NCBI GenBank assembly: GCA_026397255.1
Contig: JAPLVF010000013.1
Location: forward strand, 9,481 to 73,480
DNA: 64,000 nt
Direction of reading: 5' to 3'
DNA from: Candidatus Beckwithbacteria bacterium
GTDB taxonomy: Bacteria > Patescibacteriota > Microgenomatia > UBA1400 > CG1-02-47-37
In this document: piece after piece, positions 1,630 through 18,856 of the stretch
Layout: the number at the start of each line of letters is the position of its first letter
How positions within the stretch are numbered: position 1 is the first letter of the stretch
Translations under genes and position numbers: made by a program
The notes under the pieces: generated by a model
Told to the model about the DNA's origin: nothing
The model's database searches: none
What the model saw: only the letters and a program-made list of their open reading frames with translations

Positions 1630-2723
1630 AATGATCTAAGTAAACTGATTTCTTTTTTAATGATGGTTTGATTATTAAATCGGTGAAGAACAGTCTGACG
1701 GGCTTGTAAGCTTATGTTTTTCGCTTTTTCTGGCTGATCAATTAAACTTTGAATTCCCTGTGTTAAACCTAAAATAGTATTTTCTACCAATAAACCATCT
1801 TTGTTGTTACTAATAATAAACTGGCTGTAAGGTTTGTCAGCGACCACGCAAGAAAGACCGCAAGCCATCGCCTCGAGCAAAGCCTTGGGGCTGCCTTCAT
1901 GAAGTGAGGCCATGATAAAAATATCACCGGACTGCAAAAGTTTTGCCACTTGATCGTGAGGCAAGGAGGGAATAATTCTCAAATTAACGGATAAATCTTT
2001 AGCCAGAGCCTTTAATTTTTCCTCTAACCTGCCGTTGCCGACAATTGTCAGCCGGATTGGTCGCTGGGTTTTTACCTGACTGACTGCCTTAATAACTGCT
2101 TCAAAGTTTTTCTGATAAACCAACCGGCCGACAGAGATGATTTCCAGATATTTTCCCGGTTTTTTCTTTTGCGGTTTAAAAAGAGCGGTATCCACCCCGT
2201 TGGGAAGCAAAACCAATTTATTTTTAGGGATTATCCGAGAGACTTTATCATACATTTCCGGGTTAGTGACAATAACCCGATCGCTAAATTTCAAGCCAAA
2301 ATATTCCGTCAATTTAATAAACGGAGGGATTAAATGATGATCTTCTTTTTTGGCAAAATAAGTATAATCATAACCGTAAGTACTGACTAAAATGGTCGGC
2401 CATAAAATTTTGGCAATTATTCCCGGCCAAATTCCTAATATTTGTTTAACTCTTAAAACCTGACACGATTTTAATTGCTTAAAGTAAATAAAAGGAATTA
2501 AAAAAGTATAAATAAATCTTGGTAGCCCGGTTTTATTAACAAATAGTTGAATATATTTGGGGAAGGGGTTAGGTTCGTCATCATAGGAAAAAACAAAGGG
2601 CCGGCCAAAGGCCGGTAAATAATATTTTAAATAATTGTTAAACCAATGAATGTCCCGACCGCTTTGACGATAGGTTTTAAAACTGTCTCCCAAGTTTAGT
2701 AGAATCCCCAACTGAGGTTTCAT
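1626..2723 (-). CDS. glycosyltransferase family 4 (GT-B, retaining)
   Basis: C-terminal EX7E-type motif HEGSPKALLEAMACGLSCVV typical of GT4. Start overlaps the upstream stop (ATGA). Confidence 0.8.
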   Translation of the reverse strand: MKPQLGILLNLGDSFKTYRQSGRDIHWFNNYLKYYLPAFGRPFVFSYDDEPNPFPKYIQLFVNKTGLPRFIYTFLIPFIYFKQLKSCQVLRVKQILGIWPGIIAKILWPTILVSTYGYDYTYFAKKEDHHLIPPFIKLTEYFGLKFSDRVIVTNPEMYDKVSRIIPKNKLVLLPNGVDTALFKPQKKKPGKYLEIISVGRLVYQKNFEAVIKAVSQVKTQRPIRLTIVGNGRLEEKLKALAKDLSVNLRIIPSLPHDQVAKLLQSGDIFIMASLHEGSPKALLEAMACGLSCVVADKPYSQFIISNNKDGLLVENTILGLTQGIQSLIDQPEKAKNISLQARQTVLHRFNNQTIIKKEISLLRSL

Positions 2724-2727
2724 AAGC

Positions 2728-3792
2728 TTATTTTAACCGCAAATGGCAACAACCGACACACTGAGTCCGGAATTTTCCCGCCTTAATCTGTTGCCGGAAC
2801 CTTCGGTAAACGGAATTATTCCACAACTTCATAAACGGAGTGTCTAAAACTGAGCCGATTTTTAAGTTAAAACAGGGGTAGACATCGCCGAAAGGAGAAA
2901 TCCTCGCCAAATGAAAGATTTTATTACAATAAAGACGGCTTAAATCGACTTTGCCGGAATAATAATCAACAACTTCTGGTAAAGACAGGCTGGGCGAGAA
3001 ACTTAATCTAACGCCAAGTTTTTCAGCGGTTATCATGGCCAACTGCAAGCTTTTTGCTAATTTTGTTTTGGGAAGTTTTAAAAGTTTCTGACAGTAATCT
3101 ATTTTTAAATGTCGTAAATTTGGATGTAAATCGTAGCCGGAACGATCTAAGGACGGGTCAAGCAGCTGAAAGTTAAGCCAGTCAACTTTTAAGTCTTTGG
3201 CCAATTTAACTGTTTGATCCAAGAGTGGATAGTTTTGCGGTAAAATTAAAGAATTCATTGTAATCGTCGGCGTTGGTTTATTCTGTTGTTGTTTTTCCAG
3301 CTGAATCAGCTTTAAACTATGCAGTGTTTTTTTAAAACTGCCTTTGCCCCGACCTTGGTCATGAATCGCCGCTGTCGGTCCGTCAAGGGAAAACATCAAG
3401 GTATCCAAATCGAAGCTAATCAAAGCTTTAATCTGCTCTTTAGTAGCGGCGGTTAAGTTGGAAATCATGCCGACACGGTGCTTTTTCTTAGCATAAGCAA
3501 CAATGGTTAAAATATCTTTATGAATTAACGGCTCACCACCAGTAAAAGACAAAGCAGTTTGAGCGGGAACCTGATCAATGACTTTTAAAATTTCCAGAGT
3601 TAATAACTGTTTCCGTCGGGTAATTTTTTTCACCACTTCTTCCTGACGCAGATAGCAAAAAGTGCAGTTTAAATTACAGCCATAAAGGATTTCAAAAACC
3701 ACATTGATGGGAAATGGCGACCAACCGTTAGGCCAAAAAGAGAAAAATTGCTCGTAAACCGGGGCTAACTTTCTTTTAATTACTTGGAGCAT
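2728..3792 (-). CDS. radical SAM enzyme with C-terminal SPASM/twitch-like Cys cluster
   Basis: CNLNCTFCY (CxxxCxxC) near the N-terminus. C-terminal cysteines YCNK...YPCF...CVGCCH suggest an auxiliary Fe-S domain. Confidence 0.8.
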   Translation of the reverse strand: MLQVIKRKLAPVYEQFFSFWPNGWSPFPINVVFEILYGCNLNCTFCYLRQEEVVKKITRRKQLLTLEILKVIDQVPAQTALSFTGGEPLIHKDILTIVAYAKKKHRVGMISNLTAATKEQIKALISFDLDTLMFSLDGPTAAIHDQGRGKGSFKKTLHSLKLIQLEKQQQNKPTPTITMNSLILPQNYPLLDQTVKLAKDLKVDWLNFQLLDPSLDRSGYDLHPNLRHLKIDYCQKLLKLPKTKLAKSLQLAMITAEKLGVRLSFSPSLSLPEVVDYYSGKVDLSRLYCNKIFHLARISPFGDVYPCFNLKIGSVLDTPFMKLWNNSVYRRFRQQIKAGKFRTQCVGCCHLRLK

Positions 3793-3881
3793 AAAGATGA
3801 ATATAAGTCTAAATGAGTCTCTAAAATTTGTCCACGCTCAAATGATTAAAGTGTCTCCCGGTGATAAAAATAAACCTAAAT

Positions 3882-4658
3882 TCATAAGGATTTTTTAATA
3901 ACTATTCTAAACCCGGTTGATTCATTAATATTTTGGCCGGCTTTGGCTTTTTTATATAAAGCAATTTTTGAGTATAAGCGCAAAGATAATCCGCCCAATA
4001 AATCAATAAAGCCGATCCAAGGTGAATCATAAGTCACCGCTCTGAGGCTGATAATGTCAAAACCGGCTCTTTTAAGGATATTTTTAGCCTGAGCTAAAGA
4101 ATACTCAATTTTATGGTCCGGGTCGGCAAACGGGTTTAAGCCGACTTTTTTTTGCAGCTGCTTCCAGGAAGTATTGAGATTAGGAATAGCAATAAAAGCC
4201 AAACCCCGGGGCTTTAATAACCGCCGAATTGAGGCTAATAACTGATTTCGTCTAATAATGTGCTCTAAAACATCCAAGCAAAGAATTTTGTCAAATGACT
4301 GGTCTTTAAATTTTAATTTTTGCTCTAAATTAAATTGTCTAAAAACAACATTGGTAATATGCTTATCAGCGGCGGAATTTCTAGCAATGGTGAGTTGTTT
4401 TCGGTCATAATCCAAACCGATAATTTTCCGGCATTTAACGGCAGTCTTTAAAGTGTGCTGACCGTTATGACAGCCAAGGTCCAAAACCACATCCTGCCGG
4501 TTAATATCCGCCAAATACCAGAGCGGCTCGATGTTAATCAAATGTTTTGGGTGAATGGCATATTTACTTTTACCGGTAAGCTGCACCAGTCTCATGGAAA
4601 CAGCGGACAGGACTTTAGTTTTTTTTATTAACCAAACAAAAGGATAAAGTAATTTCAT
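3882..4658 (-). CDS. class I SAM-dependent methyltransferase
   Basis: Motif I VLDLGCHNGQ and motif ILCLDVLEHI of Methyltransf_11/12-like proteins. Confidence 0.7.
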   Translation of the reverse strand: MKLLYPFVWLIKKTKVLSAVSMRLVQLTGKSKYAIHPKHLINIEPLWYLADINRQDVVLDLGCHNGQHTLKTAVKCRKIIGLDYDRKQLTIARNSAADKHITNVVFRQFNLEQKLKFKDQSFDKILCLDVLEHIIRRNQLLASIRRLLKPRGLAFIAIPNLNTSWKQLQKKVGLNPFADPDHKIEYSLAQAKNILKRAGFDIISLRAVTYDSPWIGFIDLLGGLSLRLYSKIALYKKAKAGQNINESTGFRIVIKKSL

Positions 4659-5836
4659 GTTAAGCGGCGATAAAGAGCTAAATACTGGTTAATAATTTGT
4701 TGGCGGTTAAAGCGTGTTTGTAATAATTCTAAACTTTTTTGGGAAAATTGTGTTGTATTTTTCATGGCCTTAACTAATGCCTCTGCCACCTGGTCAGGTT
4801 TTTCCGGATCAACTAAATAACCATTGTCTTTCACCAGCTCCTGGTTACCACCGCGATTGGAGGCGACGATCGGTAAGCCGAAACTTAACGCTTCCAAGCC
4901 GGCGCGGGACAACGGTTCCGGCCAGCGGGAAAGAATCGCAAAGGCACTTGCCTGTTCATATAATTTCAAAGTTTGCTCATGGCTTAACTTGCCTAAATAT
5001 TTACAGTTCTTGGGAAACTCGGACTTAAAACTGGGGTTAATGTTACCGCAAAAAATAAATTGGTATTGAGGTAATTGTTCGGCGGCCTTAATTAAACAAT
5101 CCGTACCTTTGCCAAAAGACAACTTTCCTACTGATAGAATCATCCTTTTATTCTGGCTATAGCCCTGAGTTTGTCGGGGGCCATGGCCCTGAGCTTGTCG
5201 AAGGGGAGGCAAATTGTAAATCCAACTAACTTTTTTTACTCCATTATCCTGGTAGATTTTAGCTAACTGGGGCGAAACCGCAATTACTTGCTGGCAGCGG
5301 TTTAAAAACCACTTCAGTTTATACTGCCATAACTTGGCCAGAACCAGTTTCCACTTGGCCGTTCCGCCGTATCTTGACTGATATTCAGGAATCTCTTTAT
5401 TAATGTAATAGCCAAAACCACATTTTTTTTGCTGTTGGGTAAAGCATAAGGCTAAAGGGCATAAAAACTTAAAGTCGCGCACCGTCGCTACCACCGGCTT
5501 ATGGGTCAGCCAGCCAGCTAAAACTGCTCCGGGTAAAATATACTTACCGTGAACATGAATTAAGTCAATCTTTTTTTGCCTGATAGTTTTAATAATAAAA
5601 TAAGCTGAATAAAACCAGAAAAAAGGATTATTAAACCAAAGCGGCGATAAAATCCGGCCGGGTTTAATTTTTTTAGGAAAGGGGAATTTTAAATCGGGTG
5701 ATCGACCGCCTAAGTCAGGCGACAAAATAACCACTTTAATCCTGCGGCGTAGGCCTTCGGCTAAAGCGTGCAGGCTGTATTCAGCGCCGGAAACAGCATG
5801 CGGATAAGCGTATTCACTTAAAAAAATAATATTCAT
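4655..5836 (-). CDS. glycosyltransferase family 4
   Basis: RWPEPLSRAGLEALSFGLPIVAS GT4 C-terminal motif. ATGA overlap with the neighbouring gene. Confidence 0.8.
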   Translation of the reverse strand: MNIIFLSEYAYPHAVSGAEYSLHALAEGLRRRIKVVILSPDLGGRSPDLKFPFPKKIKPGRILSPLWFNNPFFWFYSAYFIIKTIRQKKIDLIHVHGKYILPGAVLAGWLTHKPVVATVRDFKFLCPLALCFTQQQKKCGFGYYINKEIPEYQSRYGGTAKWKLVLAKLWQYKLKWFLNRCQQVIAVSPQLAKIYQDNGVKKVSWIYNLPPLRQAQGHGPRQTQGYSQNKRMILSVGKLSFGKGTDCLIKAAEQLPQYQFIFCGNINPSFKSEFPKNCKYLGKLSHEQTLKLYEQASAFAILSRWPEPLSRAGLEALSFGLPIVASNRGGNQELVKDNGYLVDPEKPDQVAEALVKAMKNTTQFSQKSLELLQTRFNRQQIINQYLALYRRLT

Positions 5837-6585
5837 TTTAAAAGAGTGATAAAATTTTGTCCGCCTTTAATTCTTCCAGAACCATCAGAAACATTTTTAT
5901 AAGATGTGCCTGTGGCTAAGATTTTAAAGCCAAGTTTGCGGCAAATTTGTTTCATTTTGGAAACACGAATGACTAGGCTGGTTTGATTGACAGGAGCGGT
6001 AGTAATTTCTTTATAGCCTTTAAGGAAAAAGCGGATTTGATCCAGGGGATTTAATTTTGAAAATTTACCAAAATACAATTGAGCCACTCCGCCAACTTTA
6101 AGACAACGACGGGTTTCTTTAAGATAACTAGTTAAATTCTCATAATTTGGCAAGTGTTGAAGGACAATAAATGAATAGATAAAATCAAGACTGTCGGAAG
6201 CAACAGCAATTGAACAACCGGAGGTGGTAAGAAGTTTAAAATTTGTTTTACCCTGAGAGGTTAAAAATTTAATAACGGTGTTTTTTTCTTCATGAATGTC
6301 AATACCAACCACTTGTTTAAAATAACTACAGGCAGCATTAAGAATTCTCCCCCCGCCATAGCCTATTTCTAAAGCAATTTTTTCTTCGGGATTGTTAAGA
6401 TGTCTACAGACCGTTTGAGTGAGAATATGAAAAGTTAAATCCCAATAACCTCTCTTGATTGATTCATTAATATCTTTTGATTTATCAAACCACGCCTGAA
6501 ATGCAGCCATGCCTTTTTTTTTACTGGCTTTAATGGCTTGGCTGTATTTTTTTCTATGCTTAATTAAATCTGAAGACTGACTCAT
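5833..6585 (-). CDS. class I SAM-dependent methyltransferase
   Basis: LEIGYGGGRILN glycine-rich motif I and acidic motif II (FIVLQHL). Confidence 0.65.
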   Translation of the reverse strand: MSQSSDLIKHRKKYSQAIKASKKKGMAAFQAWFDKSKDINESIKRGYWDLTFHILTQTVCRHLNNPEEKIALEIGYGGGRILNAACSYFKQVVGIDIHEEKNTVIKFLTSQGKTNFKLLTTSGCSIAVASDSLDFIYSFIVLQHLPNYENLTSYLKETRRCLKVGGVAQLYFGKFSKLNPLDQIRFFLKGYKEITTAPVNQTSLVIRVSKMKQICRKLGFKILATGTSYKNVSDGSGRIKGGQNFITLLK

Positions 6586-7682
6586 AATTGATTAAATATC
6601 TTTAGCTGAGTTTTAATATTTTTCCTCCAAGTGAATTTATTAATAACATATTTTAAGGCTATTTTGCCCATTTTTTGCCGTAAATCCGGTGATTTAATTA
6701 ATTGAAGTATTTTTTCCACCCAATCATTAACATCCCCTGGTTTAGCTAAAAATCCTGTTTGGCCATCTTGAATAATCTCTCTTATTGAAGAATTATTATT
6801 GCCAATCACCGGGATACCACAGGCGCCGGCTTCAGTCAAAGTCATACCAAAACCTTCTTTTGAAGAAGGTAAAACCAGAATGTCAGCTAAACGGTAAAGT
6901 AATACTTTGTCAGATTCCGGAACAAAACCGGTAAATTTGACTCTATCAGTTAAACCTAAATTCTGAACCTGTAATTTTAATGATTTTTCCAATGGGCCTG
7001 TGCCGGCATAAATTAAAACTGTGTTTTTGTTGCCAATTTTGTCTAAAACTGTTAGTAAAAATGCCGGATTCTTCCGCTGTTTTAACCCACCGACAAATAA
7101 AATCACGAAATTACCTGCCAAATCCCAGTGATCAATAAGTTTTTGGGGTTTTGGACCAGGCTGGAATTCCTTGCCAACGCCATCATAAATTACAGAAATT
7201 TTTTCTTCCGGATAGTTTAATCTTGTAATAATTTCGTTTTTAGTAAAATGGCTAACGGCAATAAGGTGATCAAAATTCCTGATGACGATTTTATCAATTA
7301 AGTGATTAATACCCTCTTCCAGGTGATGATAGGTAGCGATAACCGGTACCTGAGGATAAAGTTTTTTAAAAACGCTGGCAGCCGGACCGACAAAATAAGG
7401 GTTATGGACGCGTAAAATATCAAATTTTTCTGCTTTATAAGTTTTAATTAAATACGGCAGGACAAAAGCAGAAAATACATGGGGCGGAAACATGGGTTTA
7501 ATCGGGGCATATGCTACAGTTAAGTTTTTGTGTTTCAGATATGGCCGGTTTTTGGGCAGTAAGCTGAAAACTTTAACCCCTGCCTGGCAAAGCCGGTTAA
7601 TTACTTCCCGGTCATAAACTTCCCCGCCGGAATTACTTTCCGGACTTAATCCCAGCTCTGGTGAACAAATTTTTAAACCCAT
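6582..7682 (-). CDS. glycosyltransferase family 4
   Basis: SSKEGFGMTLTEAGACGIPVIG GT4 motif. Confidence 0.8.
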   Translation of the reverse strand: MGLKICSPELGLSPESNSGGEVYDREVINRLCQAGVKVFSLLPKNRPYLKHKNLTVAYAPIKPMFPPHVFSAFVLPYLIKTYKAEKFDILRVHNPYFVGPAASVFKKLYPQVPVIATYHHLEEGINHLIDKIVIRNFDHLIAVSHFTKNEIITRLNYPEEKISVIYDGVGKEFQPGPKPQKLIDHWDLAGNFVILFVGGLKQRKNPAFLLTVLDKIGNKNTVLIYAGTGPLEKSLKLQVQNLGLTDRVKFTGFVPESDKVLLYRLADILVLPSSKEGFGMTLTEAGACGIPVIGNNNSSIREIIQDGQTGFLAKPGDVNDWVEKILQLIKSPDLRQKMGKIALKYVINKFTWRKNIKTQLKIFNQL

Positions 7683-7705
7683 TCCCTTATTTTACTGTAC
7701 TTCTC

Positions 7706-10080: not shown

Positions 10081-10660
10081 ATCATCACTGTTAATCATTA
10101 TTTGCGTGGCCGTTATCGGCGGGCTCATGTTTTGGCGCCTTAATCCCCAATCAATCCCAATTAAGGTTATTACCGAGCCGAGTCCCGGCCCGGTGCTAAA
10201 TTTATCTGCCAACTCATCAGACGGGAAAATTTACCTGGAGATGAAGCAGAAAAAGGAAGCGAATACAATAACCTGGACCATGACAGCTAAGCAAGGTGAG
10301 GAAACGGCAAAAACAATCTGGTGGCAGACTTTGCCGGCTGATACCACTATCTCTATTCCGCTCAACTCTGTCTCCCCGGATAATAAATATATGTTTTTAA
10401 AGCAAACCGGGCCCGATAAAACCCGCTATATAGTGTTAACCACCAGCGGCAAGCCGCTGGGTTCAGGATCGCAAACAGTGGAATTTGCCGAGTTGTTCGA
10501 GCTAAAGCACCCGGAATATATTATTACCGAGGTGACAGGCTGGGGCGGAACCAACTTAATTGTGTTTAATACTGACAAAATCGCGGGCGTAATTGGCCCA
10601 TCTTTTTGGTTTGACTTGTCCGGCAAATCGTTTATTCAGCTCTCCCACCGCTTTGATTAG
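10061..10660 (+). CDS. hypothetical membrane-anchored exported protein
   Basis: N-terminal TM helix. Overlaps the L,D-transpeptidase 3' end by 20 nt and is likely co-transcribed. Confidence 0.5.
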   Translation: MVKPQAKSSLLIIICVAVIGGLMFWRLNPQSIPIKVITEPSPGPVLNLSANSSDGKIYLEMKQKKEANTITWTMTAKQGEETAKTIWWQTLPADTTISIPLNSVSPDNKYMFLKQTGPDKTRYIVLTTSGKPLGSGSQTVEFAELFELKHPEYIITEVTGWGGTNLIVFNTDKIAGVIGPSFWFDLSGKSFIQLSHRFD

Positions 10661-10661
10661 T

Positions 10662-10691
10662 TTTTACTTTACTTCCCGGCTCTTTTCACTT
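10662..10691 (-). repeat. boundary motif copy 2
   Basis: Exact 30-mer TTTTACTTTACTTCCCGGCTCTTTTCACTT in the 38 bp gap between convergent genes. Confidence 0.7.
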
Positions 10692-10698
10692 GTTCTCT

Positions 10699-11307
10699 TT
10701 AATTTTCAAATATCATTTTCTTGTAAATTTTCCGGGTAGTCTCGACATCTTTTTCGCAGTACTCACAGATTTCTTTAATCCGGCCAGCTTGATAAGCCTT
10801 AGCCACGTCTTTACCTTCGATTTCCCCTTCTTTAGGGCTGGGAATGCCTAAAACCTTAGACAGCGCGTGCAAAGAAATTTTACTTTGCAGATTCCATTTG
10901 CTCCACTCGCACATAATGTCAAAGATGGGAAAGTTACGGTAGCGGGCAAAGTTTAAGTCTTTGCTGGGCTTAACGCCTAAAATAACCGATCTTTGGTAAA
11001 TAAACCTTAAATCAAAGTCCATCAGATTAAAGCCAATAAATAAATCCGCATTTTTGGCAATAGCCCAAAAATCCGTCAGCATTTTCTTTTCGTCTCCGGA
11101 AAGAGTTTTCACCGCTTCGTCATTAACGGCATAAGAAATGCAGGCGATGCGGCCGTAAGACCCGTCCAGTCCGGTGCTTTCGACAAACTCTTCAAAAGTT
11201 CTTGGGGTATATTTACTTCTTCTTTTCCTCTTATAAATATCTTTGAGGATCTCCCTCATTTCTTCCCCTGACGGCAAAGTTTCAATATCTAAGTAGAGTT
11301 TAGTCAT
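10699..11307 (-). CDS. DnaQ-like 3'-5' exonuclease, PolB-exonuclease-domain-related
   Basis: Exo I YLDIET, Exo II-like GFNLMDFDL and Exo III-like YCEKDVETT motifs in a ~200 aa protein. Confidence 0.6.
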   Translation of the reverse strand: MTKLYLDIETLPSGEEMREILKDIYKRKRRSKYTPRTFEEFVESTGLDGSYGRIACISYAVNDEAVKTLSGDEKKMLTDFWAIAKNADLFIGFNLMDFDLRFIYQRSVILGVKPSKDLNFARYRNFPIFDIMCEWSKWNLQSKISLHALSKVLGIPSPKEGEIEGKDVAKAYQAGRIKEICEYCEKDVETTRKIYKKMIFEN

Positions 11308-11374: not shown

Positions 11375-11986
11375 ATGAAATATGATGAGATGTTTAATAA
11401 AGTAAGGAATTTGGAATTTGATACAGAAATGTCTGTTTGTAAATCTCATGATACGGAACTTTATTTGCTTAGACCATCTGTTCTCTCCAAGAGATTTTCC
11501 ACATATAACGTAAAAAAGAATTTTCAAATATGGCTTAGAACTGTTGCAAGAAATTTTAGACCTAATCATCTTAGGGTTTTTATTGATTTAAACTTAAGGG
11601 TAAGAAGCAGACCAGATTTAAAGGAAAAAATGTTAGTTGCCTTTGATGACATTTTCTACGGTAAAGATCCTAACGAGGTAATTCAGGGTTTGAAAAAAGA
11701 AAAATTTGAACATTTTTTGAACCCAATTGAAATAATTGCTAATTTGTCACAACTTTTCATAATTGAGCAGGCTTACTCATACAACAAAGAAAGCAATTTT
11801 GACCCTCCTACGCTTTTTTACCAAGGATGGATAAGGCAAGTTTTAGATGATATTAAAGAAATTGATAATTTGTGTATGAGTATTTCTAGGGGTCAACCTG
11901 CAGCAGCAAAATATACATCGAAAGAAAATAAAAAAAGTAATAAATTCCAGGCTAAATTAAGGCCCTTGTGGTATATTGAGGCATAG
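11375..11986 (+). CDS. hypothetical protein, candidate restriction endonuclease partner
   Basis: AT-rich ORF convergent with, and overlapping by 35 bp, the DPPY DNA methyltransferase. Possible PD-(D/E)xK-like FDD...E.K segment. No direct homology recognised. Confidence 0.35.
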   Translation: MKYDEMFNKVRNLEFDTEMSVCKSHDTELYLLRPSVLSKRFSTYNVKKNFQIWLRTVARNFRPNHLRVFIDLNLRVRSRPDLKEKMLVAFDDIFYGKDPNEVIQGLKKEKFEHFLNPIEIIANLSQLFIIEQAYSYNKESNFDPPTLFYQGWIRQVLDDIKEIDNLCMSISRGQPAAAKYTSKENKKSNKFQAKLRPLWYIEA

Positions 11987-12812
11987 AATAGTTTTCTTTC
12001 ACTAATCTAAGCTGTTTTTTCTCAAGATTGGATTTTAGCTCTTCAAATCTTTGTATTGATAAATCTAAATACTGTTTTTCAGTGTCAATTCCAATAAATT
12101 TTCTTCCATATAAATAAGCGGCTAACCCCGTAGTGGAACTGCCGGTAAAAGGATCAAGGATTAAATCACCCTTTCTAGTACTGGCTAAAACTATTCTTTT
12201 AAGCAAGTCTATAGGTTTTTGAGTCGGATGTTTTCCAAATTTTTTCTCAATCGGTTTAGGCGTATTAATTGACCAAACTGATCTCATTTGCAAGTTCGCT
12301 TTTTTTAATTGGTCTTCCGGCCAATTACCATCTTTCATCAATTTATAGTTAAAGATGTGTTTACCTTCTTTGTCTTTTCTGGCCCAAATTAGGGTTTCGT
12401 GGCTAGCGGTAAAAAAACGGCAGCTTAAATTTGGAGAGGCATTCGGCTTAAACCAAGCAATATCGTTTAATATGTGAAATTTATTAATTTCTAAGGCCAG
12501 ACCGCATTGATAAATGGAGTGATAAGTTCCACTTACCCAAATAGTTCCATTGGGTTTTAAAATCTTTTTACATAGCTTTAACCATTCTCTATGAAATTCA
12601 AAATTTTTCTTTGTTCCATTACTTAAATCCCAGTCTCCTTTTTTTACACTAACCATTTTCCCGTTTTGGCAGGTGAAACTGCCGCTGGAAAGAAAATAAG
12701 GCGGGTCGGCAAAAATCATATCCACGGAATTCTCCGGAAACTGACTCAAGAGTTTTAAAGAATTACCCAAGTAAAGCTCAAAGTTTAGTTTTTCGTAGTA
12801 AGGTTTTAACAT
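11952..12812 (-). CDS. DNA methyltransferase, N6-adenine/N4-cytosine, beta-class
   Basis: Motif IV IFADPPYFL precedes motif I ILDPFTGSSTTGLAA, the order typical of beta-class amino-MTases (N4/N6 methylase domain). Confidence 0.85.
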   Translation of the reverse strand: MLKPYYEKLNFELYLGNSLKLLSQFPENSVDMIFADPPYFLSSGSFTCQNGKMVSVKKGDWDLSNGTKKNFEFHREWLKLCKKILKPNGTIWVSGTYHSIYQCGLALEINKFHILNDIAWFKPNASPNLSCRFFTASHETLIWARKDKEGKHIFNYKLMKDGNWPEDQLKKANLQMRSVWSINTPKPIEKKFGKHPTQKPIDLLKRIVLASTRKGDLILDPFTGSSTTGLAAYLYGRKFIGIDTEKQYLDLSIQRFEELKSNLEKKQLRLVKENYSMPQYTTRALI

Positions 12813-12893
12813 ATCTTTATGGGATCGGGTTTTATTTGTATATCTTCATTAAGAACCCTTTGGCAAATTTTGTCAACAACTACGTACTTATTA

Positions 12894-12918
12894 TTTTACT
12901 TCCCTATTCTTTTCACTT
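12894..12918 (-). repeat. boundary motif copy 3 (degenerate: TTTTACTTCCCTATTCTTTTCACTT)
   Basis: Shares TTTTACTTCCC and TCTTTTCACTT with copies 1 and 2. Lies between the ImmA stop and the MTase start. Confidence 0.6.
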
Positions 12919-12926
12919 ATGATGGC

Positions 12927-13421
12927 TTAATTCCAATTAGCTAATTTATCGTATAGCTTGGTTTCTTTTAATCTCCACATCATCATATCTTTACTTACCC
13001 AGTAATTTTTTGCTAATTCACTCCAAGATAAAGAGATAAGCCGTTCCGCTTTTATCAATTGTAAAGGCACTAATAATTCGGCGGCAAATTTATTAGCGGC
13101 CACCTCATCGGGATTTTTATTTGAAAAGTCTATTGTTCTGAAACCAGAATTATGCCCCATTAAAATATGCCCCAATTCATGAGCGATCGTATACCTTATC
13201 CTTGTTTCAGGTTTTTTATTATTATATATAATCTGAGTCGTTCCAACACTAAAACCATCCTCATCACCTAAATCTTTGCCTTGAACGGAAATTTTAAAGT
13301 CTACTTGTTTTAAAATTAAGTTTAGTCGAATTGGGGGAATTTTTTGAACACTTTGCTTAATAAGATTTCTGGCAAGTTTTAAAGCAAATCCATTGTCATT
13401 TGGTTCATCTTGAAAATTCAT
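12927..13421 (-). CDS. ImmA/IrrE-family zinc metallopeptidase
   Basis: HELGHILMGH HEXXH motif in a ~160 aa protein immediately downstream of, and overlapping, an XRE HTH gene (COG2856-type arrangement). Confidence 0.8.
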   Translation of the reverse strand: MNFQDEPNDNGFALKLARNLIKQSVQKIPPIRLNLILKQVDFKISVQGKDLGDEDGFSVGTTQIIYNNKKPETRIRYTIAHELGHILMGHNSGFRTIDFSNKNPDEVAANKFAAELLVPLQLIKAERLISLSWSELAKNYWVSKDMMMWRLKETKLYDKLANWN

Positions 13422-13737
13422 CTTTTGAAAGCCTTATGGCTTCATTAATGGCTTTATTAAATTTTGGGTTTTTAAGGGCCTTTTTCGAAGCACGGAAAGA
13501 AATATGAATTGATGGAACGCTAAAACCTTCAATTAATTCTTTCAGACTAACCTGTAATTCTCTAGCAATCTTGGATAACGTTCCAAGATTATTGATTTCT
13601 CTCTCGCCACTTTCATAAAGAGCGATTAATGAGGTAGAAAGTCCAAGTTTATTCCCCAACTCCTGTTGTGACGCCCCGACAGCTTCCCTTGCTTCTTTTA
13701 TGTTTTTCCCAATTTTTTTGAAATTTAACTCCATCAT
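13405..13737 (-). CDS. HTH XRE-family transcriptional regulator
   Basis: IKEAREAVGASQQELGNKLGLSTSLIALYESGER helix-turn-helix segment. Confidence 0.85.
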   Translation of the reverse strand: MMELNFKKIGKNIKEAREAVGASQQELGNKLGLSTSLIALYESGEREINNLGTLSKIARELQVSLKELIEGFSVPSIHISFRASKKALKNPKFNKAINEAIRLSKDEFSR

Positions 13738-13759
13738 GCTAGAGTTTAAACCAAAGTTG

Positions 13760-13815
13760 AAAATTTGTCAAATCTGCTTGTTGACTTTGTAAATATTTTT
13801 GTTACAATACAGACA
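13760..13815. promoter_or_regulatory. divergent promoter/operator region between the XRE gene and the payload genes
   Basis: TTGACT -35, 16 nt spacer, TACAAT -10 on the plus strand. The -35 is overlapped by an inverted repeat TTGTCAA-N9-TTGAC. Confidence 0.4.
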
Positions 13816-13841
13816 TAGTTACTAATTATTTTAATTTAATT

Positions 13842-14207
13842 ATGGGTAAAAGTTCAGAATCTAGACGTAAAAATGAACCGGTCGTTAAATCTCGGGGGTC
13901 AACGGGAAGTTATGCCGCCAGTGGTGGTAATAATTCTATTAAACAAGACTGTCTGTTTAGTCTAAAATTTGAGCAAAAAGTCCCTACTCTCATGACTGTA
14001 ATAGTTGGTCAATACGCTGTTTTGTTGCCGGATAATTCCAATCTTTACCTAAACGTGATTATTGACGGTCAAAGTGCCGGAAGATATTCAGGTAAAATGA
14101 GCAAAAAAGTAATTAAGTGTATTAGCGAGGGCTTTGTTTACGAAGGTAAGGTCATCTCTATTAAGGATAGCTCCCTGGCAGTAATCGAAGTTAAGGGCCG
14201 TGGATGA
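13842..14207 (+). CDS. hypothetical protein (121 aa)
   Basis: First gene divergent from XRE/ImmA. Stop overlaps the next start (ATGGATGA). Confidence 0.55.
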   Translation: MGKSSESRRKNEPVVKSRGSTGSYAASGGNNSIKQDCLFSLKFEQKVPTLMTVIVGQYAVLLPDNSNLYLNVIIDGQSAGRYSGKMSKKVIKCISEGFVYEGKVISIKDSSLAVIEVKGRG

Positions 14208-15186
14208 AAAAATTACAGATCAGTTAGAATTTTGGGGTCTCAATGGTTTATCAACAGCGCGCATATCCGGTTGTCCAGTCGTTGATTATTTAGATGATTG
14301 CGACAGCGCTTGTTATCCAACAAAACCTTCAAAGTACGAAGCGCTGACGTGTGGCAGCAAAAAAGGGGCTCAATTTTTGGGAGACGCAAGGGGGGCGACA
14401 TTAAACAACATTAAAGCGTTGAGGGTAAAAATTCCAAAACTGCCAATTTTCATCCCGGAATTACAACATGGTAGCAAGTACTTAGTTAATAATACTAAAT
14501 TAGATTGGGTGGCAGTCAAAATTGACGAAGTTGTGTCAAAACATGATTTAAAAGTTGCCGCTGATATTCGTAAAAGAATAGGAATCGATTCAAAAACAAA
14601 AGTACTATTACTTGGTTACGGATCCGACCGGTTTTTAGAGAATTTATGGACAAACAGGAAGAAAATCTTTCCTCAAATCGCCAGCTTGAAAGCGGATCTT
14701 TACACGGCCATTGACTATTCAGTTTTTCTCGTTCACCCACACCTCGAGAGAGTTCTTAACGTTAAAAGAAGTTTGGTGACTTTTGATATTTTACAAAGGC
14801 TAGGAGTTCCGGTCGTGCCGCATATTTATTGGAGCGGGGAAAAAGACATGAAAAGATGGGCGTTCTGGCTGAACCAAAATTCTGGAGTAAATTTAGTGTC
14901 CATGTATTTAGGTTGGATTAGAAAAAGCGAATGGGTGAAAATATTTTCAGAGCTTAAGTGTCTAAATAAATCGCTTGAGAGAAAAATAAATTACTTGATA
15001 AGCGGGCCGGGCAATTTAACAGAAATAAAACCGTTAAAAGAAATTCTCGGAAACGTAATTTTAACAGACGCAGAATGTGCCTTGAATGCGGCACATCATA
15101 AATTAAGTCAAAATAAATTAAAAGTTACTTACTATCCATTCAAGGAAAATTTAGATTACCATACAGAATTAGTAAAAGCCGCATAA
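14200..15186 (+). CDS. hypothetical protein (328 aa)
   Basis: Translationally coupled to the 121 aa ORF. No motif I can assign with confidence. Confidence 0.55.
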   Translation: MDEKITDQLEFWGLNGLSTARISGCPVVDYLDDCDSACYPTKPSKYEALTCGSKKGAQFLGDARGATLNNIKALRVKIPKLPIFIPELQHGSKYLVNNTKLDWVAVKIDEVVSKHDLKVAADIRKRIGIDSKTKVLLLGYGSDRFLENLWTNRKKIFPQIASLKADLYTAIDYSVFLVHPHLERVLNVKRSLVTFDILQRLGVPVVPHIYWSGEKDMKRWAFWLNQNSGVNLVSMYLGWIRKSEWVKIFSELKCLNKSLERKINYLISGPGNLTEIKPLKEILGNVILTDAECALNAAHHKLSQNKLKVTYYPFKENLDYHTELVKAA

Positions 15187-15201
15187 GGGGTGAGCAACCT
15201 G

Positions 15202-15267
15202 TGATAAGATAAATTTATGAAAAAAGTGATGGTGACGGGGAGCGGAGGGTTCATTGGAAGACAGCTG
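15202..15267 (+). pseudogene. duplicated epimerase promoter/5' end, copy A (MKKVMVTGSGGFIGRQL then stop)
   Basis: TGATAAGATAAATTTATGAAAAAAGTGATGGTGACGGGGAG... nearly identical to the true epimerase start at 17987-18045. Reading frame terminates after 17 codons. Confidence 0.7.
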
Positions 15268-15280
15268 TAGGACGGAAGCA

Positions 15281-15735
15281 CTATTTATAACTAGCAGGAC
15301 AGTTTTTTGCCTTGGTAAAACCGGCTTTACGGGCTTCGGCTTCGGTGCAGAACCAACTATCGCCGTTGTGCAATTGAACATCAACCTTGTTGTAGTAACC
15401 GCAGCCAGGAAAATAATAGGTCATTTCGCCGCTGTTCTGACTGATATCAGCAGAATTTAGTTTAATGTTGCCTTTTATTTGACAATCCGAATTTTCCGGG
15501 TTAAACCTTTGAGTGCAGAGTTCGCTAAAGACCCCCAGTTTGGCCGCCCTGGCTTTTTTGGTGGCCGGCAATTAAAGCCGCCTTATTCCCGCCATATTGA
15601 CTATGAACTTCCGACCAACCAGATGCCAGCATGTTTTCATCGACAGAACCGTCTTCAGTATAAACAAGAGAGATTAATCGGCTAGAATCGCGATAAACGA
15701 CCTTGAGATAAATGTCTTTATTTGGATTTTTTGGC
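15281..15735 (-). pseudogene. thermonuclease (SNase-like) remnant with Cys-rich C-terminal domain, frameshifted and N-terminally truncated
   Basis: Upstream frame encodes LISLVYTEDGSVDENMLASGWSEV, like the SNase C-terminal half. The 96 aa ORF in another frame encodes CQIKGNI...YYFPGCGYY...WFCTEAEARKAGF. A T6 run lies at the frame junction. Confidence 0.5.
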
Positions 15736-15777
15736 TCTTGCGGCAGGCATTACTTAATTGTAACTCAAGTGCAGAAA

Positions 15778-15808
15778 TCAAGTTGTGTTAAGATAAGGAG
15801 TGTTGATG
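15778..15808 (+). repeat. partial copy A' of the epimerase upstream sequence
   Basis: ATCAAGTTGTGTTAAGATAAGGAGTGTTGATGAA versus ATCAGTTGTGTGATAAGATAAGTTTATGAA at 17971-18000. Confidence 0.5.
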
Positions 15809-15812
15809 AAGG

Positions 15813-16277
15813 TTATTTTCTCTTACTTAATGACTTAACGATTAAATTTTGAGCCACAGCCGGATCTATGTGATCGGCTTTAATGAAAAGAATTTGGCGT
15901 TCAGGAAGATATTTCTCAGGCAAAAACCGCCAAATCATAGCAGGATCAATTTTAAACTCTGCTTTGGTATCAATAGGGATAATCGAATCGCCTTGCTGCG
16001 AAAGCCCGAGATCGCCTAATATAGTGTGAAATCCTAAACTCAGGTCATTGATTAATGAACGCCAGTTTTCCCGCTCTTGAAACGTAACCGGACTAACCAG
16101 AAAATAATATCCGGGGCGGGCTTTTATTTTCTGAGCGTCTTCAGGTTTACTCAGATCACAAAAACTAATTTGTTTTTCGCCAATTGCACCAATTTCCATA
16201 ATTGAAAGAACGGTGGTTACTCGCGAGGTTTTTCTGCCTGGATGGAATAATTTATCCCAAGTTTCTTTAAAAGACAT
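15813..16277 (-). CDS. hypothetical protein (154 aa)
   Basis: Second gene of a two-gene unit bounded by epimerase-5' repeat copies. No recognisable domain. Confidence 0.55.
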   Translation of the reverse strand: MSFKETWDKLFHPGRKTSRVTTVLSIMEIGAIGEKQISFCDLSKPEDAQKIKARPGYYFLVSPVTFQERENWRSLINDLSLGFHTILGDLGLSQQGDSIIPIDTKAEFKIDPAMIWRFLPEKYLPERQILFIKADHIDPAVAQNLIVKSLSKRK

Positions 16278-16298
16278 AGATTTCGGGCAGACGGGGAA

Positions 16299-17090
16299 TT
16301 ATACCAGGTTGGGGAAGAGAAAGCCTTTGATATCTAAAAAGTCAATTTTTTTATCCTTGACAAAAATCCTGTCTTTACCACTGATATCAATTTGCCTGGG
16401 AACATAAATTAAGCCGTTAATTTCCCTTAAATCATCCGGTAATACTTGTTTCTTTCGGGAAAAAGCTGAAAGTTTATCGGTAAAATCCTTCAGCGGACTC
16501 ATCCTTTGTCGATGTAAAGCATAACTCGATTCTTTTGGTTTAACAAACAACTTTAAGATGCTTAATTTTGTTTGCTTATTTTGCTTCTCTACTAATGCCT
16601 CTAAGCGAGCTTGAGTATCATCCTTTTCCAACATTGGATTGGCGCCGCTTAAAATTAATAAACCTTCGTTATCCCCAATCACTGTTTTAACGCCGGTAAA
16701 AAATTTCCTTAATTTGAGAACGGCTTGTTTCATTGAATGAAATCTGCCTTCTCTAAATTCAATCGGCTGGTGAAGGCCAACAGCATTACCATGGTTATCT
16801 TTGGCCAACATCAGGGCGCAAAAACTGGCACCATGTATAAAAATTACGGCCGGATCTGTTTCAGTGGAAATAATATTCTCAGAATCTTTGATTTTTTCAA
16901 ATCCGGGCGTGGTTTCATAGACAGTCGGATCTGCCGAGCGAACCTTAAAGCCACTTTTAGGCAAAGATTGCTGTAAATTTTCCGGAGAGGCGTAAGCAAT
17001 TGTGGTATCAAATTTTTTTAGGACATCAAGTATAGGAGAAGGTTCAAGCGTTTGGGGTAAACCCCGGTTAATTTCAAAAAAATCCTGCAT
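16299..17090 (-). CDS. hypothetical protein (263 aa)
   Basis: First gene of the two-gene unit. No recognisable domain. Confidence 0.55.
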   Translation of the reverse strand: MQDFFEINRGLPQTLEPSPILDVLKKFDTTIAYASPENLQQSLPKSGFKVRSADPTVYETTPGFEKIKDSENIISTETDPAVIFIHGASFCALMLAKDNHGNAVGLHQPIEFREGRFHSMKQAVLKLRKFFTGVKTVIGDNEGLLILSGANPMLEKDDTQARLEALVEKQNKQTKLSILKLFVKPKESSYALHRQRMSPLKDFTDKLSAFSRKKQVLPDDLREINGLIYVPRQIDISGKDRIFVKDKKIDFLDIKGFLFPNLV

Positions 17091-17100
17091 ATTTATTATA

Positions 17101-17157
17101 TGATAAGATAAGTTTATGAAAAAAGCGATGGTGACGGGGAGCTCGGGGTTTATCTAA
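17101..17157 (+). pseudogene. duplicated epimerase promoter/5' end, copy B (MKKAMVTGSSGFI then stop)
   Basis: 53 nt almost identical to 17981-18033, then divergence and a TAA stop. Confidence 0.7.
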
Positions 17158-17243
17158 AGACACCTGATAGAAAGACTGAAAAAGGAAAAGTTTAAGAAAT
17201 TTGTCAATAGCCGCTTGACAACGTGCTATAATGAAATTACATA

Positions 17244-17314: not shown

Positions 17315-17938
17315 TTATTTAAACGGCCAAATATCTTCAATTCTTCTTGACCTTTTAAGCATAGTTAAATAATCAGAATCTTTTTTTGTAAAGTCAGAGA
17401 ACACTGCCCCAGCTACCATATCAGCCAGTTGAATCAGCGTGTTTTGTCTTGAATCCACAAACTTTAAATCTTTAAAGATTTTACTGTTCTTATTGTCTAA
17501 ACGCCTGGATAAATAAACTCTTAACTGATTCCTTAGGGTTCTCTCTCCTCTTTTATCAACTTTCAATTTTGCGTTTTTTATTGATCCGCCGCTTTGTTTC
17601 AAAACCTGCATGATTACATAGTTATAAAAATCTTCTTTATTGCTTCTTAATCTTTGGCTGCGAATTAATGCTTTGTTAACCATAATGGCTCTAACCCTAA
17701 ACTTAAATGATCTGATAGCGTTGAAAAAGGCTTTGCGAAATTTTCTGTTGGTTTTATTGAACTTAAATTCGTATTTATCTTGTAATTTCAGTTTTCTCCT
17801 TAGTTCTTTAATTGCCACCGAGGTCTTTTCTGCTTCCAGGTTGTCATTGAAAATAACTAAGGCCAACACAAAAATATCGCTTGAGCCTTTTTGGAGCTTA
17901 AAACCTGGATCTCCGGATTCGTCAATAAAAACTATCAT
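17315..17938 (-). CDS. DUF3800 family protein
   Basis: N-terminal MIVFIDESGDPGF matches the conserved iY/F-IDESG start remembered for DUF3800 proteins. Confidence 0.65.
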   Translation of the reverse strand: MIVFIDESGDPGFKLQKGSSDIFVLALVIFNDNLEAEKTSVAIKELRRKLKLQDKYEFKFNKTNRKFRKAFFNAIRSFKFRVRAIMVNKALIRSQRLRSNKEDFYNYVIMQVLKQSGGSIKNAKLKVDKRGERTLRNQLRVYLSRRLDNKNSKIFKDLKFVDSRQNTLIQLADMVAGAVFSDFTKKDSDYLTMLKRSRRIEDIWPFK

Positions 17939-17995
17939 TAAATTATTTTATCACCTAAGGCCTGAAAAATATCAGTTGTGTGATAAGATAAGTTT

Positions 17996-18856
17996 ATGAA
18001 AAAAGCGATGGTGACGGGGAGTTCGGGGTTTATTGGGAGAAAACTGATCAAGAGATTACAAAAAGACGGGGTGGAGGTAGTGGGGTTTTCTAGAAAAGAG
18101 GGGAAAAATATCACCAAAAAGGAAGATTTTGCGGGGTTGGGAAAGGTGGACACGGTGTTTCATCTGGCGGCAGTGTCGGGGTATAAGGACTGTGCGGAAA
18201 ACACCGGTTTGGCGTATGAGGTGAATGTGGGCGGAACAACTAATGTTTTAGAATATTGCCGGAAAAGCAAGGCAAAATTAATTTTTCCCAGCACGTATGT
18301 TTATGACCAGCCTTATTCAGAGGTGAAAACGGAAACGAGTGCGACGAAGCCGACGACGCATTATTCTTTCACGAAATTCTTAGGCGAAGAACTCTGTCGT
18401 TTTTACACGCGGGTATTTAAAGTGAACAGTTTGATTTTACGAACAGCCAATGTGTTCGGATTTGGCCAAGAAGACAAGTATTTGGTGCCGATTATCTTTA
18501 ATAATATTCTGGCAGGCCGAGAGTTTGAGCTGACCAAGCCGGAAATTGAACGGAGTTTTATTTATATTGCTGATTTGGTGGAGGCTTATGTCCGTCTGGC
18601 AGAAGCGAATAGCGAAAGCGGAGAAACATATAATATCGGACCGGAGAAGCCAACAACTTTGCAGGAATTGGTGCAGGCGATGGAGAAGGTAACCGGAAAG
18701 AAAGCCCGGGTAAAATATTCCGGCCAAGAGCGGCCAAATGAAGTGAATTTAAACCGGGTGGATACAGGTAAGATGAAAGCAAAACTTAACTGGCAGCCGG
18801 AAATCAGTTTAGAGCAGGGATTAAAACAATATCTGGAAAAACTTCATGAAGTTTAA
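17996..18856 (+). CDS. NAD-dependent epimerase/dehydratase (extended SDR)
   Basis: GSSGFIGRKL Rossmann motif and YxxxK (YSFTK). This is the intact copy of the repeated 5' end. Confidence 0.85.
   Translation: MKKAMVTGSSGFIGRKLIKRLQKDGVEVVGFSRKEGKNITKKEDFAGLGKVDTVFHLAAVSGYKDCAENTGLAYEVNVGGTTNVLEYCRKSKAKLIFPSTYVYDQPYSEVKTETSATKPTTHYSFTKFLGEELCRFYTRVFKVNSLILRTANVFGFGQEDKYLVPIIFNNILAGREFELTKPEIERSFIYIADLVEAYVRLAEANSESGETYNIGPEKPTTLQELVQAMEKVTGKKARVKYSGQERPNEVNLNRVDTGKMKAKLNWQPEISLEQGLKQYLEKLHEV

Follow-up and report, generated by a model that had tools for sequence, protein, structure and literature searches.

A conserved gene pair for predicted HIRAN-like and TGT-fold (DUF4417) proteins beside an ImmR/ImmA-class switch in a Candidatus Beckwithbacteria genome

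The stretch of DNA analysed here, hereafter called the window, comprises 64,000 nucleotides (nt) of contig JAPLVF010000013.1 (assembly GCA_026397255.1) and originates from a metagenome-assembled genome of Candidatus Beckwithbacteria, a lineage of the candidate phyla radiation. It contains a compact four-gene locus consisting of two regulator genes on the minus strand, which encode an ImmA-type metallopeptidase of 164 amino acids (aa) and an XRE-family repressor of 110 aa, and two payload genes on the plus strand, which encode proteins of 121 aa and 328 aa; a check of the open reading frames (ORFs) of the window found all four at the coordinates given in Table 1. A first-pass annotation had described overlapping XRE and HEXXH-type ImmA genes that lie head-to-head with a promoter driving a translationally coupled gene pair, and all of these features were confirmed. 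The XRE and peptidase genes, both supported by Pfam and PADLOC matches, overlap by 17 nt, and the 328 aa ORF, which begins with GTG, overlaps the stop of the upstream 121 aa ORF by 8 nt. The GTG start is supported because homologues begin with MDE or MDD at the equivalent point. All readings of function given below are based on similarity between folds and on the genes nearby.

The 164 aa peptidase matches Pfam Peptidase_M78 (PF06114; E 4.6e-16, residues 45-151), the PHROG 87 metallo-protease family (8.9e-24) and the PADLOC profile capP (2.6e-20), of whose 242 positions only 7-152 are aligned. Its zinc motif HELGH (H81-E82-x-x-H85) lies inside ...YTIAHELGHILMGH..., and the downstream E106...FAAELLVP motif is also present. 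According to the Pfam and PADLOC coverage, the protein consists of one domain only, with no GAF domain and no helix-turn-helix (HTH), and zero cysteines occur in its translation. The XRE protein carries its HTH at residues 13-68, is extended by ~40 further residues at its C-terminus and matches Pfam HTH_3 (3.5e-10), the NCBIfam RstR family (3e-10) and, in PADLOC, HTH_VI (4.9e-10), capH (1.6e-8) and control-protein profiles of restriction-modification systems (~1e-6). It is presumed to be the substrate of the peptidase.

In the ImmR/ImmA, CapH/CapP and DdrO/IrrE systems, the repressor is cleaved after DNA damage, which releases transcription (PMC13228613). CapP and IrrE are composed of peptidase, HTH and GAF domains and sense single-stranded DNA in the groove between the peptidase and GAF domains (PMC13228613). 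As in CapH/CapP, the genes of an XRE repressor and an M78 HEXXH peptidase adjoin a divergent operon in the window, and at this class level the CapH/CapP-like label of the first-pass annotation stands; the three-domain architecture and the cysteine switch of CapP, however, are absent. Unlike CapP, the window peptidase has no HTH-GAF sensor (164 aa; relatives 171-178 aa), and unlike many, albeit not all, CapP proteins, it is cysteine-free and has no cysteine-switch loop. Its assignment as a true CapP was rejected because of its different domain architecture. The arrangement resembles the ImmR/ImmA pairs of the ICEBs1 and phage phi105 type, in which a single-domain peptidase of ~170 aa is encoded directly after an overlapping XRE gene. 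Judged from its sequence, the regulator half, which is the part of the locus that is understood best, is an ImmR/ImmA-class switch, the closest regulator found, with a minimal ImmA-type protease. Unlike in ImmR/ImmA, CapH/CapP and DdrO/IrrE, the genes that it would control are neither excision and transfer genes nor CBASS genes nor the Deinococcus repair regulon.

The XRE and 121 aa genes are separated by a spacer of 104 nt, which contains the two best sigma-70-like matches of the 2.7 kb scanned; both agree with the consensus at 10 of 12 positions and point in opposite directions. The candidate payload promoter reads TTGACT-16-TACAAT with a TG element and the candidate regulator promoter TTGACA-17-TAAACT, and their -35 hexamers are 9 nt apart. 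A script search found the inverted repeat TTGTAA-N9-TTACAA, which extends from just past the -35 hexamer of the payload promoter into its -10 hexamer. With arms of only 6 bp, this repeat is a weak candidate for the operator.

The 121 aa protein consists of a conserved motif (residues 1-16), a Gly/Ser-rich linker (residues 17-30) and a beta domain (residues 31-121). A word-indexed search retrieved 12 relatives, which carry neither names nor domains. M1, G2, V14 and K16 are invariant in all 18 aligned homologues, the linker varies in length and sequence, and a Met-Gly start was found at 21 of 22 distinct loci. Residues 1-30 of the predicted model have a local confidence score (pLDDT) below 50, and the protein is predicted to adopt a HIRAN beta fold behind a disordered tail of ~30 residues; C37 and C93 are invariant in the HIRAN-like domain. 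HIRAN domains bind DNA ends that carry a 3'-OH. The Pfam HIRAN profile gave no match to the protein at E<=0.1, which sets it apart, together with the extra conserved N-terminal tail, from HLTF, Rad5, lp_0118 and the HipA-associated 'HipI'. In addition, the partner of the HIRAN-like protein is a TGT-fold protein and not a kinase or helicase.

For the 328 aa protein, a word-indexed search gave three relatives only; an exhaustive profile search reached 1167 representative clusters with a cut-off of E<=1e-3 and 776 with one of E<=1e-10. DUF4417 (PF14386) is matched by 60 of 81 aligned relatives at E<=0.01 (best 4.9e-11). The window protein itself reaches 26.9 bits with a gathering threshold of 28.9, over residues 132-230 only, and is labelled by NCBI as DUF4417 domain-containing. 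In the model obtained with the 81-sequence alignment (pLDDT 94.2, predicted TM-score 0.92), strands and helices alternate, and the fold comparison returned QTRT2 as the top match. A Foldseek search of viral models yielded ten matches at E<=0.001; among these, only phage 'queuine tRNA-ribosyltransferases' (E 1.7e-5 and 6.5e-4) bear a name, with modest TM-scores of 0.4-0.5. The protein is therefore predicted to be a (beta/alpha)8 TIM barrel of the TGT type and a divergent member of DUF4417, and the enzyme folds closest to the model are those of DpdA, TGT and Cap10. As far as the model goes, its relatedness to TGT is at the fold level only, and membership of the TGT family is not demonstrable. 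The C-terminal zinc subdomain CxCxxC...H is not found in the 328 aa sequence, and Cap10 likewise lacks the TGT zinc site. PDB sequence searches also gave weak matches to AcrIC9 and to a designed repeat protein (E 0.1-1.7), which were put down to chance. The payload, which had been introduced as a pair of unknown function, still has no known function, but is not featureless, as its predicted folds are those of a HIRAN-like and a TGT-fold DUF4417 protein.

Two residues, D143 and S174, are invariant across the 81 members, and C25, C38, P86, E147, W150, P207, W223 and G269 are near-invariant. Active sites of TIM barrels are located at the C-terminal ends of the strands, and most of the conserved residues borne by the barrel lie at or just past these ends in the predicted structure. 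When residues are mapped onto TGT positions by strand order, and not by superposition, D143 would correspond to the general acid/base, and S174, which follows strand 4, would replace the base-recognising Asp. The near-invariant N-terminal cysteines C25 and C38 of the window clade are accompanied by C34 and C52 in the window protein. In distant members (P0044, P0053, P0058 and others), the N-terminal extension grows to 6-7 cysteines with CxxCxxC-like spacing. The sequence of this cysteine-rich extension suggests a variable zinc or iron-sulfur element. A further observation concerns residues 236-239 (14905-14916) at the end of predicted strand 6, which read Y-L-G-W in the window subclade and [N/D]-L-Q-T in 60-80% of the family, and residue 290, which is Asp in the window subclade and Asn in most members; both sites are clade-specific changes of putative pocket residues.

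Related loci were retrieved by homology and scanned with custom hidden Markov models (loci L031-L037 were added later). A scan of species-representative genomes with alignment A1 found one locus, and a metagenome scan found 14. At each of the 24 surveyed loci with sequence upstream of the TGT-like gene, a homologue of the small protein is encoded directly upstream of the TGT-like gene; the genes mostly overlap or are otherwise separated by a few nucleotides, and the pairing also holds in L031-L037. No fusion of the small protein to the TGT-like protein was found among ~150 retrieved family representatives. In the loci examined, the HIRAN-like and TGT-fold genes form a conserved, obligate unit. 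The four-gene geometry of the window is repeated at four further distinct loci with protein identities of 29-45%, and the arrangement is thus more than chance because the same geometry recurs there. The survey proposed with the first-pass annotation therefore finds the pair next to XRE/ImmA genes at five distinct loci, the window included, in varied genomic contexts and not in a conserved housekeeping setting devoid of these regulators. The ImmA peptidases of L002, L012, L025 and L031 are encoded at the same position and comprise 171-178 aa (164-178 aa over all five loci). Pairwise identity of the peptidases, determined for four of the five loci, is 29-39%, compared with 32-45% for the payload enzymes of the same loci; such similar divergence fits a long co-inheritance of the module.

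Other lineages have other neighbours. LexA-type regulators, which combine an HTH with a Peptidase_S24 domain, were found at three to four loci in total. The commonest neighbour in another subclade is a helical protein of 88-90 aa, which is 78-85% identical between loci, is usually encoded divergently and has no Pfam match. Possible roles are those of a third component and of an alternative regulator.

Table 1. Coordinates of the features at the window locus and in related loci.
Locus	Feature	Position	Strand	Basis or remark
Window	ImmA-type M78 zinc metallopeptidase, 164 aa	12927-13421	-	Pfam PF06114, PADLOC capP, PHROG 87
Window	XRE-family HTH repressor, 110 aa	13405-13737	-	HTH_3, HTH_VI, capH, RstR family
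Window	Divergent promoter region, back-to-back	13743-13808	both	sigma-70-like matches
Window	Candidate regulator promoter	13771-13743	-	
Window	Candidate payload promoter	13781-13808	+	
Window	Inverted repeat, weak candidate operator	13787-13807		script search
Window	HIRAN-like partner protein (predicted), 121 aa	13842-14207	+	
Window	TGT-fold DUF4417-family protein (predicted), 328 aa	14200-15186	+	GTG start
Window	Right-hand segment boundary, truncated pseudo-copy of the epimerase gene 5' end (first repeat copy)	15190-15287	+	repeat search
Window	Second repeat copy	17089-17186		
Window	Third repeat copy	17969-18066		
Window	203 aa ORF	11375-11986	+	convergent with the methyltransferase gene, 35-nt overlap
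Window	CcrM-like beta-class adenine methyltransferase	11952-12812	-	N6_N4_Mtase, MTase_II, CcrM
Window, L002, L012, L025/L026, L031	XRE and ImmA genes			window geometry
L014, L021	LexA-type regulator (HTH and Peptidase_S24)			divergent
L036	lexA in the same operon as the pair	5008-7107 (unit)		771-kb chromosomal contig; 8-nt overlap between lexA and the small gene
L003-L011, L020	88-90 aa protein of no known role			co-oriented relative in L033
L003	88-90 aa protein gene	396-665		
L004	88-90 aa protein gene	7439-7705		
L006	88-90 aa protein gene	958-1227		
L007	88-90 aa protein gene	71-337		
L008	88-90 aa protein gene	1875-2141		
L010	88-90 aa protein gene	892-1164		
L020	88-90 aa protein gene	3766-4032		
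L033	Distant relative of the 88-90 aa protein	1334-1576		co-oriented
L029	dcm, 57 aa ORF, DUF4417, amidoligase_2/SWIM protein (run of genes)	3735-7430		pCW3-like Tcp plasmid NZ_CP143495.1 of C. perfringens

The best reading of the locus, which is put forward tentatively, is that of a DNA-damage-inducible, mobile and DNA-base-targeting two-protein module under the control of a repressor-cleavage switch. In the unstressed cell, an XRE dimer bound to the intergenic operator would block the payload promoter. DNA damage or phage replication would activate the minimal ImmA-type peptidase by a route other than the GAF groove of CapP, the peptidase would cleave the XRE repressor, and both payload proteins would then be made together. 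The HIRAN-like domain could bind DNA 3' ends or damaged, fork-like DNA, while the flexible, glycine-tipped tail of the 121 aa protein might dock on its TGT-fold partner. The latter would flip a base out and excise or exchange it via the D143/S174 pocket, and the small protein might serve as adaptor, as built-in inhibitor or as both. A DNA-directed activity is proposed because of the HIRAN-like partner, the enzyme fold associated with base flipping and base exchange, the ParB partners of distant relatives, a parallel to DpdA, which requires the ParB-like ATPase DpdB (PMC10164549), and the methyltransferase-rich surroundings. Damage-inducible expression is supported independently because the payload is found under LexA in other genomes.

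Several results weigh against this reading. No sequence link of the 328 aa protein to TGT (PF01702) was found in Pfam, PHROG or NCBIfam, and profile searches of PDB sequences with alignments A1 and A3 gave no TGT match. Alignment A3 compared by hhalign with an alignment of the E. coli-type TGT gave a probability of 0.2; the TGT alignment was shallow, as the homologue search had returned only relatives of >83% identity, and the sensitivity of this comparison is limited. A hallmark of TGT and DpdA is a set of three invariant Asp residues, which act as general acid/base, in base recognition and as nucleophile (PMC10164549). The 81 members share a single invariant Asp, D143. Strand 8 ends at the site of the nucleophile of TGT and DpdA; here, 46 of 81 members have Asn and four, among them the window protein, have Asp. 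Classical covalent transglycosylation is doubtful because the nucleophile position is mostly Asn and only one Asp is invariant; based on the model, the 328 aa protein could instead be a hydrolytic glycosylase or, like QTRT2, a base- or ligand-binding subunit. Among known defence systems, the 328 aa protein matches no PADLOC model, and the 121 aa protein has a marginal match only (PDC-M21C, E 0.006). A viral scan with alignment A1 found no relatives, a tblastn search of phage genomes found no close relative, and the commonest neighbour in other lineages is the 88 aa protein of unclear role.

The conserved Met-Gly terminus allows for a more specific variant of the proposed mechanism. In type IV CBASS and QatABCD, a partner protein inserts its disordered N-terminus, which begins with MGGS or MGTS, into the active site of an enzyme derived from QueC or TGT, and the module resembles Cap10-CdnD and QatC-QatB in having a disordered tail with a conserved Met-Gly beside a TGT-fold enzyme. 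By analogy, the TGT-fold enzyme might take the Gly-tipped tail into its base pocket in the style of Cap10-CdnD, but without a QueC ligase, prior to conjugation or base exchange; this variant seems unlikely. The partner would then be linked covalently to a nucleobase or to DNA, amounting to a base-for-protein exchange at a DNA end, or, alternatively, a base would be exchanged directly in DNA, as a damage-induced defence or as 'base-exchange repair'. No ligase of the QueC family (PF06508; Cap9, QatC) was found in the loci with Pfam listings or among the scanned ORFs of the window. Unlike type IV CBASS operons, the loci with Pfam listings also contain no CD-NTase or effector genes.

The gene order itself, with the small gene first and overlapping the larger one, in combination with tight repression suggests that a potent activity is held in check. 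An antitoxin role against HipA-like kinases has been predicted for small HIRAN proteins (PMC11706625), and the toxin-antitoxin-like layout was counted in favour of a defence or toxin role for this reason. The same prediction, the overlap of the small upstream gene with the larger downstream gene and the use of the TGT fold by tRNA enzymes could also be explained by an ordinary type II toxin-antitoxin system that does not act on DNA. Here, a TIM-barrel toxin would target tRNA or a metabolite and would be neutralized by the small antitoxin, and the XRE/ImmA pair would be the unrelated switch of a mobile element. However, divergent or upstream repressors of the cleavable type recur across lineages and thus likely control the pair, a dedicated divergent promoter region is present, and the HIRAN and ParB partners point to DNA. 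An ordinary toxin-antitoxin system is therefore very improbable.

The damage-inducible, DNA-directed module that is favoured here lies in a region that seems prone to insertion. The G+C content is 33-41% across ~11-18 kb of the window, compared with 43-45% in the flanks. A 40-nt exact repeat core occurs three times, starting at 15203, 17102 and 17982, with zero such occurrences expected by chance, and extends to ~70-98 nt with mismatches. The repeat comprises the ribosome-site region and the first ~17 codons of a gene for an NAD-dependent epimerase (Pfam Epimerase, 1e-42), whose real start is located in the third copy (17996); copies one and two run into stop codons. Since the first copy begins 4 nt past the stop codon of the 328 aa gene, the payload indeed ends at a cassette boundary, as originally proposed. 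The low-GC island of ~7 kb (~10.7-18.0 kb) is an insertion hotspot whose segments were acquired serially by tandem accretion. It contains genes for a PolB-like exonuclease and a CcrM-like methyltransferase, the 203 aa ORF, the four module genes, a DUF3800 gene and three ORFs without family. On the left side, a repeat pair termed D2 (10658-10712 and 12885-12939) was dropped as a cassette boundary, as it shows 71% identity over 55 nt and has a roughly estimated chance probability of p ~0.1. No recombinase was recognised among the scanned ORFs of the island with Pfam, PHROG and NCBIfam, nor were int/xis-type neighbours as in ImmR/ImmA elements. The notion that the locus is a prophage was rejected because phage structural and lysis genes are absent; this agrees with the first-pass annotation, with the qualification that the related loci L012 and L025 lie near serine recombinases. 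The segments at 15281-17090 and 17315-17938 (minus strand) encode the DUF3800 protein (Pfam, 4.9e-19), a 96 aa protein with a weak match to a PHROG 'membrane associated protein' and two proteins of 154 aa and 263 aa without family matches.

Adjacent to the regulator genes, the methyltransferase matches Pfam N6_N4_Mtase (2.4e-58), PADLOC MTase_II (5.2e-97) and NCBIfam CcrM (4.1e-69). The 203 aa ORF has no match in Pfam, PHROG, NCBIfam, PADLOC or PDB sequences. By sequence, both are candidates for a type II restriction-modification pair, in which the ORF is possibly a new endonuclease. This candidate system (11375-12812) is a neighbour that may also belong to the module. The most likely role in this genome, albeit with considerable doubt, is that of an inducible module directed against phages or mobile elements, or else of an abortive, toxin-like one, given its place in a low-GC hotspot of insertion beside the restriction-modification pair. 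The defence or toxin role proposed at first is thus plausible.

Similar surroundings are found at part of the related loci. DNA methyltransferase or restriction genes lie within ~5 kb in seven of 14 distinct loci with usable flanks, and examples are the type IIG enzyme of L001, the type II pair of L002 and the methyltransferase-Mrr fusion of L006; the other seven loci have no such neighbour, which counts against the favoured reading. Fusions of ParB_N to an N6_N4 methyltransferase, with lengths of 442 and 476 aa, are encoded in L016 (2193-3985) and L025 (3126-4977), are followed by an HTH_Tnp_1_2-like protein of 154-168 aa and adjoin the pair or its ImmA gene. Large serine recombinase genes are located ~1-3 kb downstream in L012 and L025, and a mobile-element origin is likely because these relatives lie near them. 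The occurrence of the module is patchy and includes genomes of 36-44% G+C as well as plasmids. Distant DUF4417 proteins (~25% identity) are encoded on 89 plasmids. In Streptomyces plasmids, the DUF4417 gene overlaps an upstream gene for a ParB N-terminal domain, in Mycolicibacterium plasmids a ParB/RepB/Spo0J gene lies just upstream of DUF4417, and in pCW3-like plasmids of C. perfringens DUF4417 is located between dcm and an amidoligase gene. ParB-DUF4417 fusions occur in phages. At the profile level, these phage and plasmid proteins belong to the same family as the window protein; the nearest of them share ~25% identity or are undetectable, and the window branch has an N-terminal Cys extension and a HIRAN-like partner instead of a ParB domain.

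These contexts are also compatible with a protective function, in which the TGT-fold enzyme, together with an adjacent methyltransferase, would insert or swap a base in the DNA of the mobile element or of its host and thereby confer anti-restriction, in the manner of DpdA/DpdB or phage DpdA. DpdA and TGT are among the closest folds; in L016 and L025, the pair has ParB_N-N6_N4 methyltransferase fusions at its flank; the XRE, ImmA and methyltransferase genes follow each other on one strand in the same order in the window and L025; and DUF4417, which phages and plasmids carry in fused or coupled form with ParB domains, is found beside dcm or ParB-methyltransferase genes. Unlike DpdA, however, the 328 aa protein has no detectable sequence homology to it, has one invariant Asp in place of the catalytic three of TGT and DpdA and lacks the large DNA-binding insertion Ins8. 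Its loci also differ from the Dpd system, as the preQ0 pathway, DpdC and other Dpd genes are missing and the partner is HIRAN-like and not ParB-like; in the loci with Pfam listings, no base-precursor gene of the QueC/D/E type is present. Furthermore, tight repression that is released upon damage would be unusual for a protective modification, which is needed before the attack, and the searches of phage collections detected no relative. Anti-restriction is therefore regarded as an unlikely function.

The LexA-type repressors bear on a different explanation, namely an SOS-type system for repair or damage tolerance, in which the HIRAN-like protein would recruit the TGT-fold enzyme to the 3' ends of stalled forks or gaps. 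The damaged base would be removed or swapped directly, and the module would be mobile in the manner of imuABC cassettes. Apart from L014 and L021, where the repressor lies beside the pair, the evidence comes from L036 (GCA_040961665.1, contig JBFOMY010000011.1), in which a lexA gene of 212 aa, the small gene and the TGT-fold gene are co-oriented in one operon and the TGT-fold gene begins 5 nt past the small gene. This unit is surrounded by metG-like, RmuC and UvrD/PDDEXK genes, and its setting looks more like that of an SOS repair gene than of a defence island. In addition, switches of the ImmA/XRE and IrrE/DdrO types also run damage responses (PMC13228613), HIRAN is known from the fork-remodelling and repair proteins HLTF and Rad5 (PMC11706625), and the payload enzyme shares the fold of base-handling enzymes. 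On the other hand, the distribution is patchy without a conserved genomic context, and the window module resides in a repeat-bounded low-GC hotspot beside restriction-modification genes. Restriction-modification or methyltransferase neighbours at half of the 14 loci, the serine recombinases near two loci and the toxin-antitoxin-like layout also argue against a repair function, as do the distant relatives on plasmids, for which three contexts were examined, each with a ParB-family or methyltransferase gene alongside. SOS-type repair is a real rival to the defence or toxin role and has to be taken seriously, even though it is on balance the less expected outcome.

In the full-text search, DUF4417 is mentioned in four papers only, no paper was found whose available text assigns a fold or function to it, and none among the matches listed connects HIRAN to a TGT-like protein. 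The damage-inducible, DNA-directed module preferred here combines a switch of a known type, repressor cleavage, with a previously undescribed effector pair of a HIRAN-like and a TGT-fold protein. The repeated occurrence of this pair under ImmA/XRE and LexA repressors is a strong hint at a potent, normally silenced activity directed at DNA. The analysis provides a predicted fold and a plausible class of substrates for DUF4417, a functionally unassigned family of >1000 clusters at 50% identity with members from bacteria, plasmids and phages. The Met-Gly tail beside a TGT-fold enzyme echoes the deazaguanylation carried out by Cap9/Cap10-CdnD and QatBC, the logic of which may reach beyond QueC-containing operons. 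If the tail indeed enters the pocket of the enzyme, the pair would represent a new chemistry of nucleic acid-protein conjugation or repair, and DUF4417 would for the first time have a known function, which would extend to the fusions with ParB in phages and to the ParB-coupled genes of plasmids.

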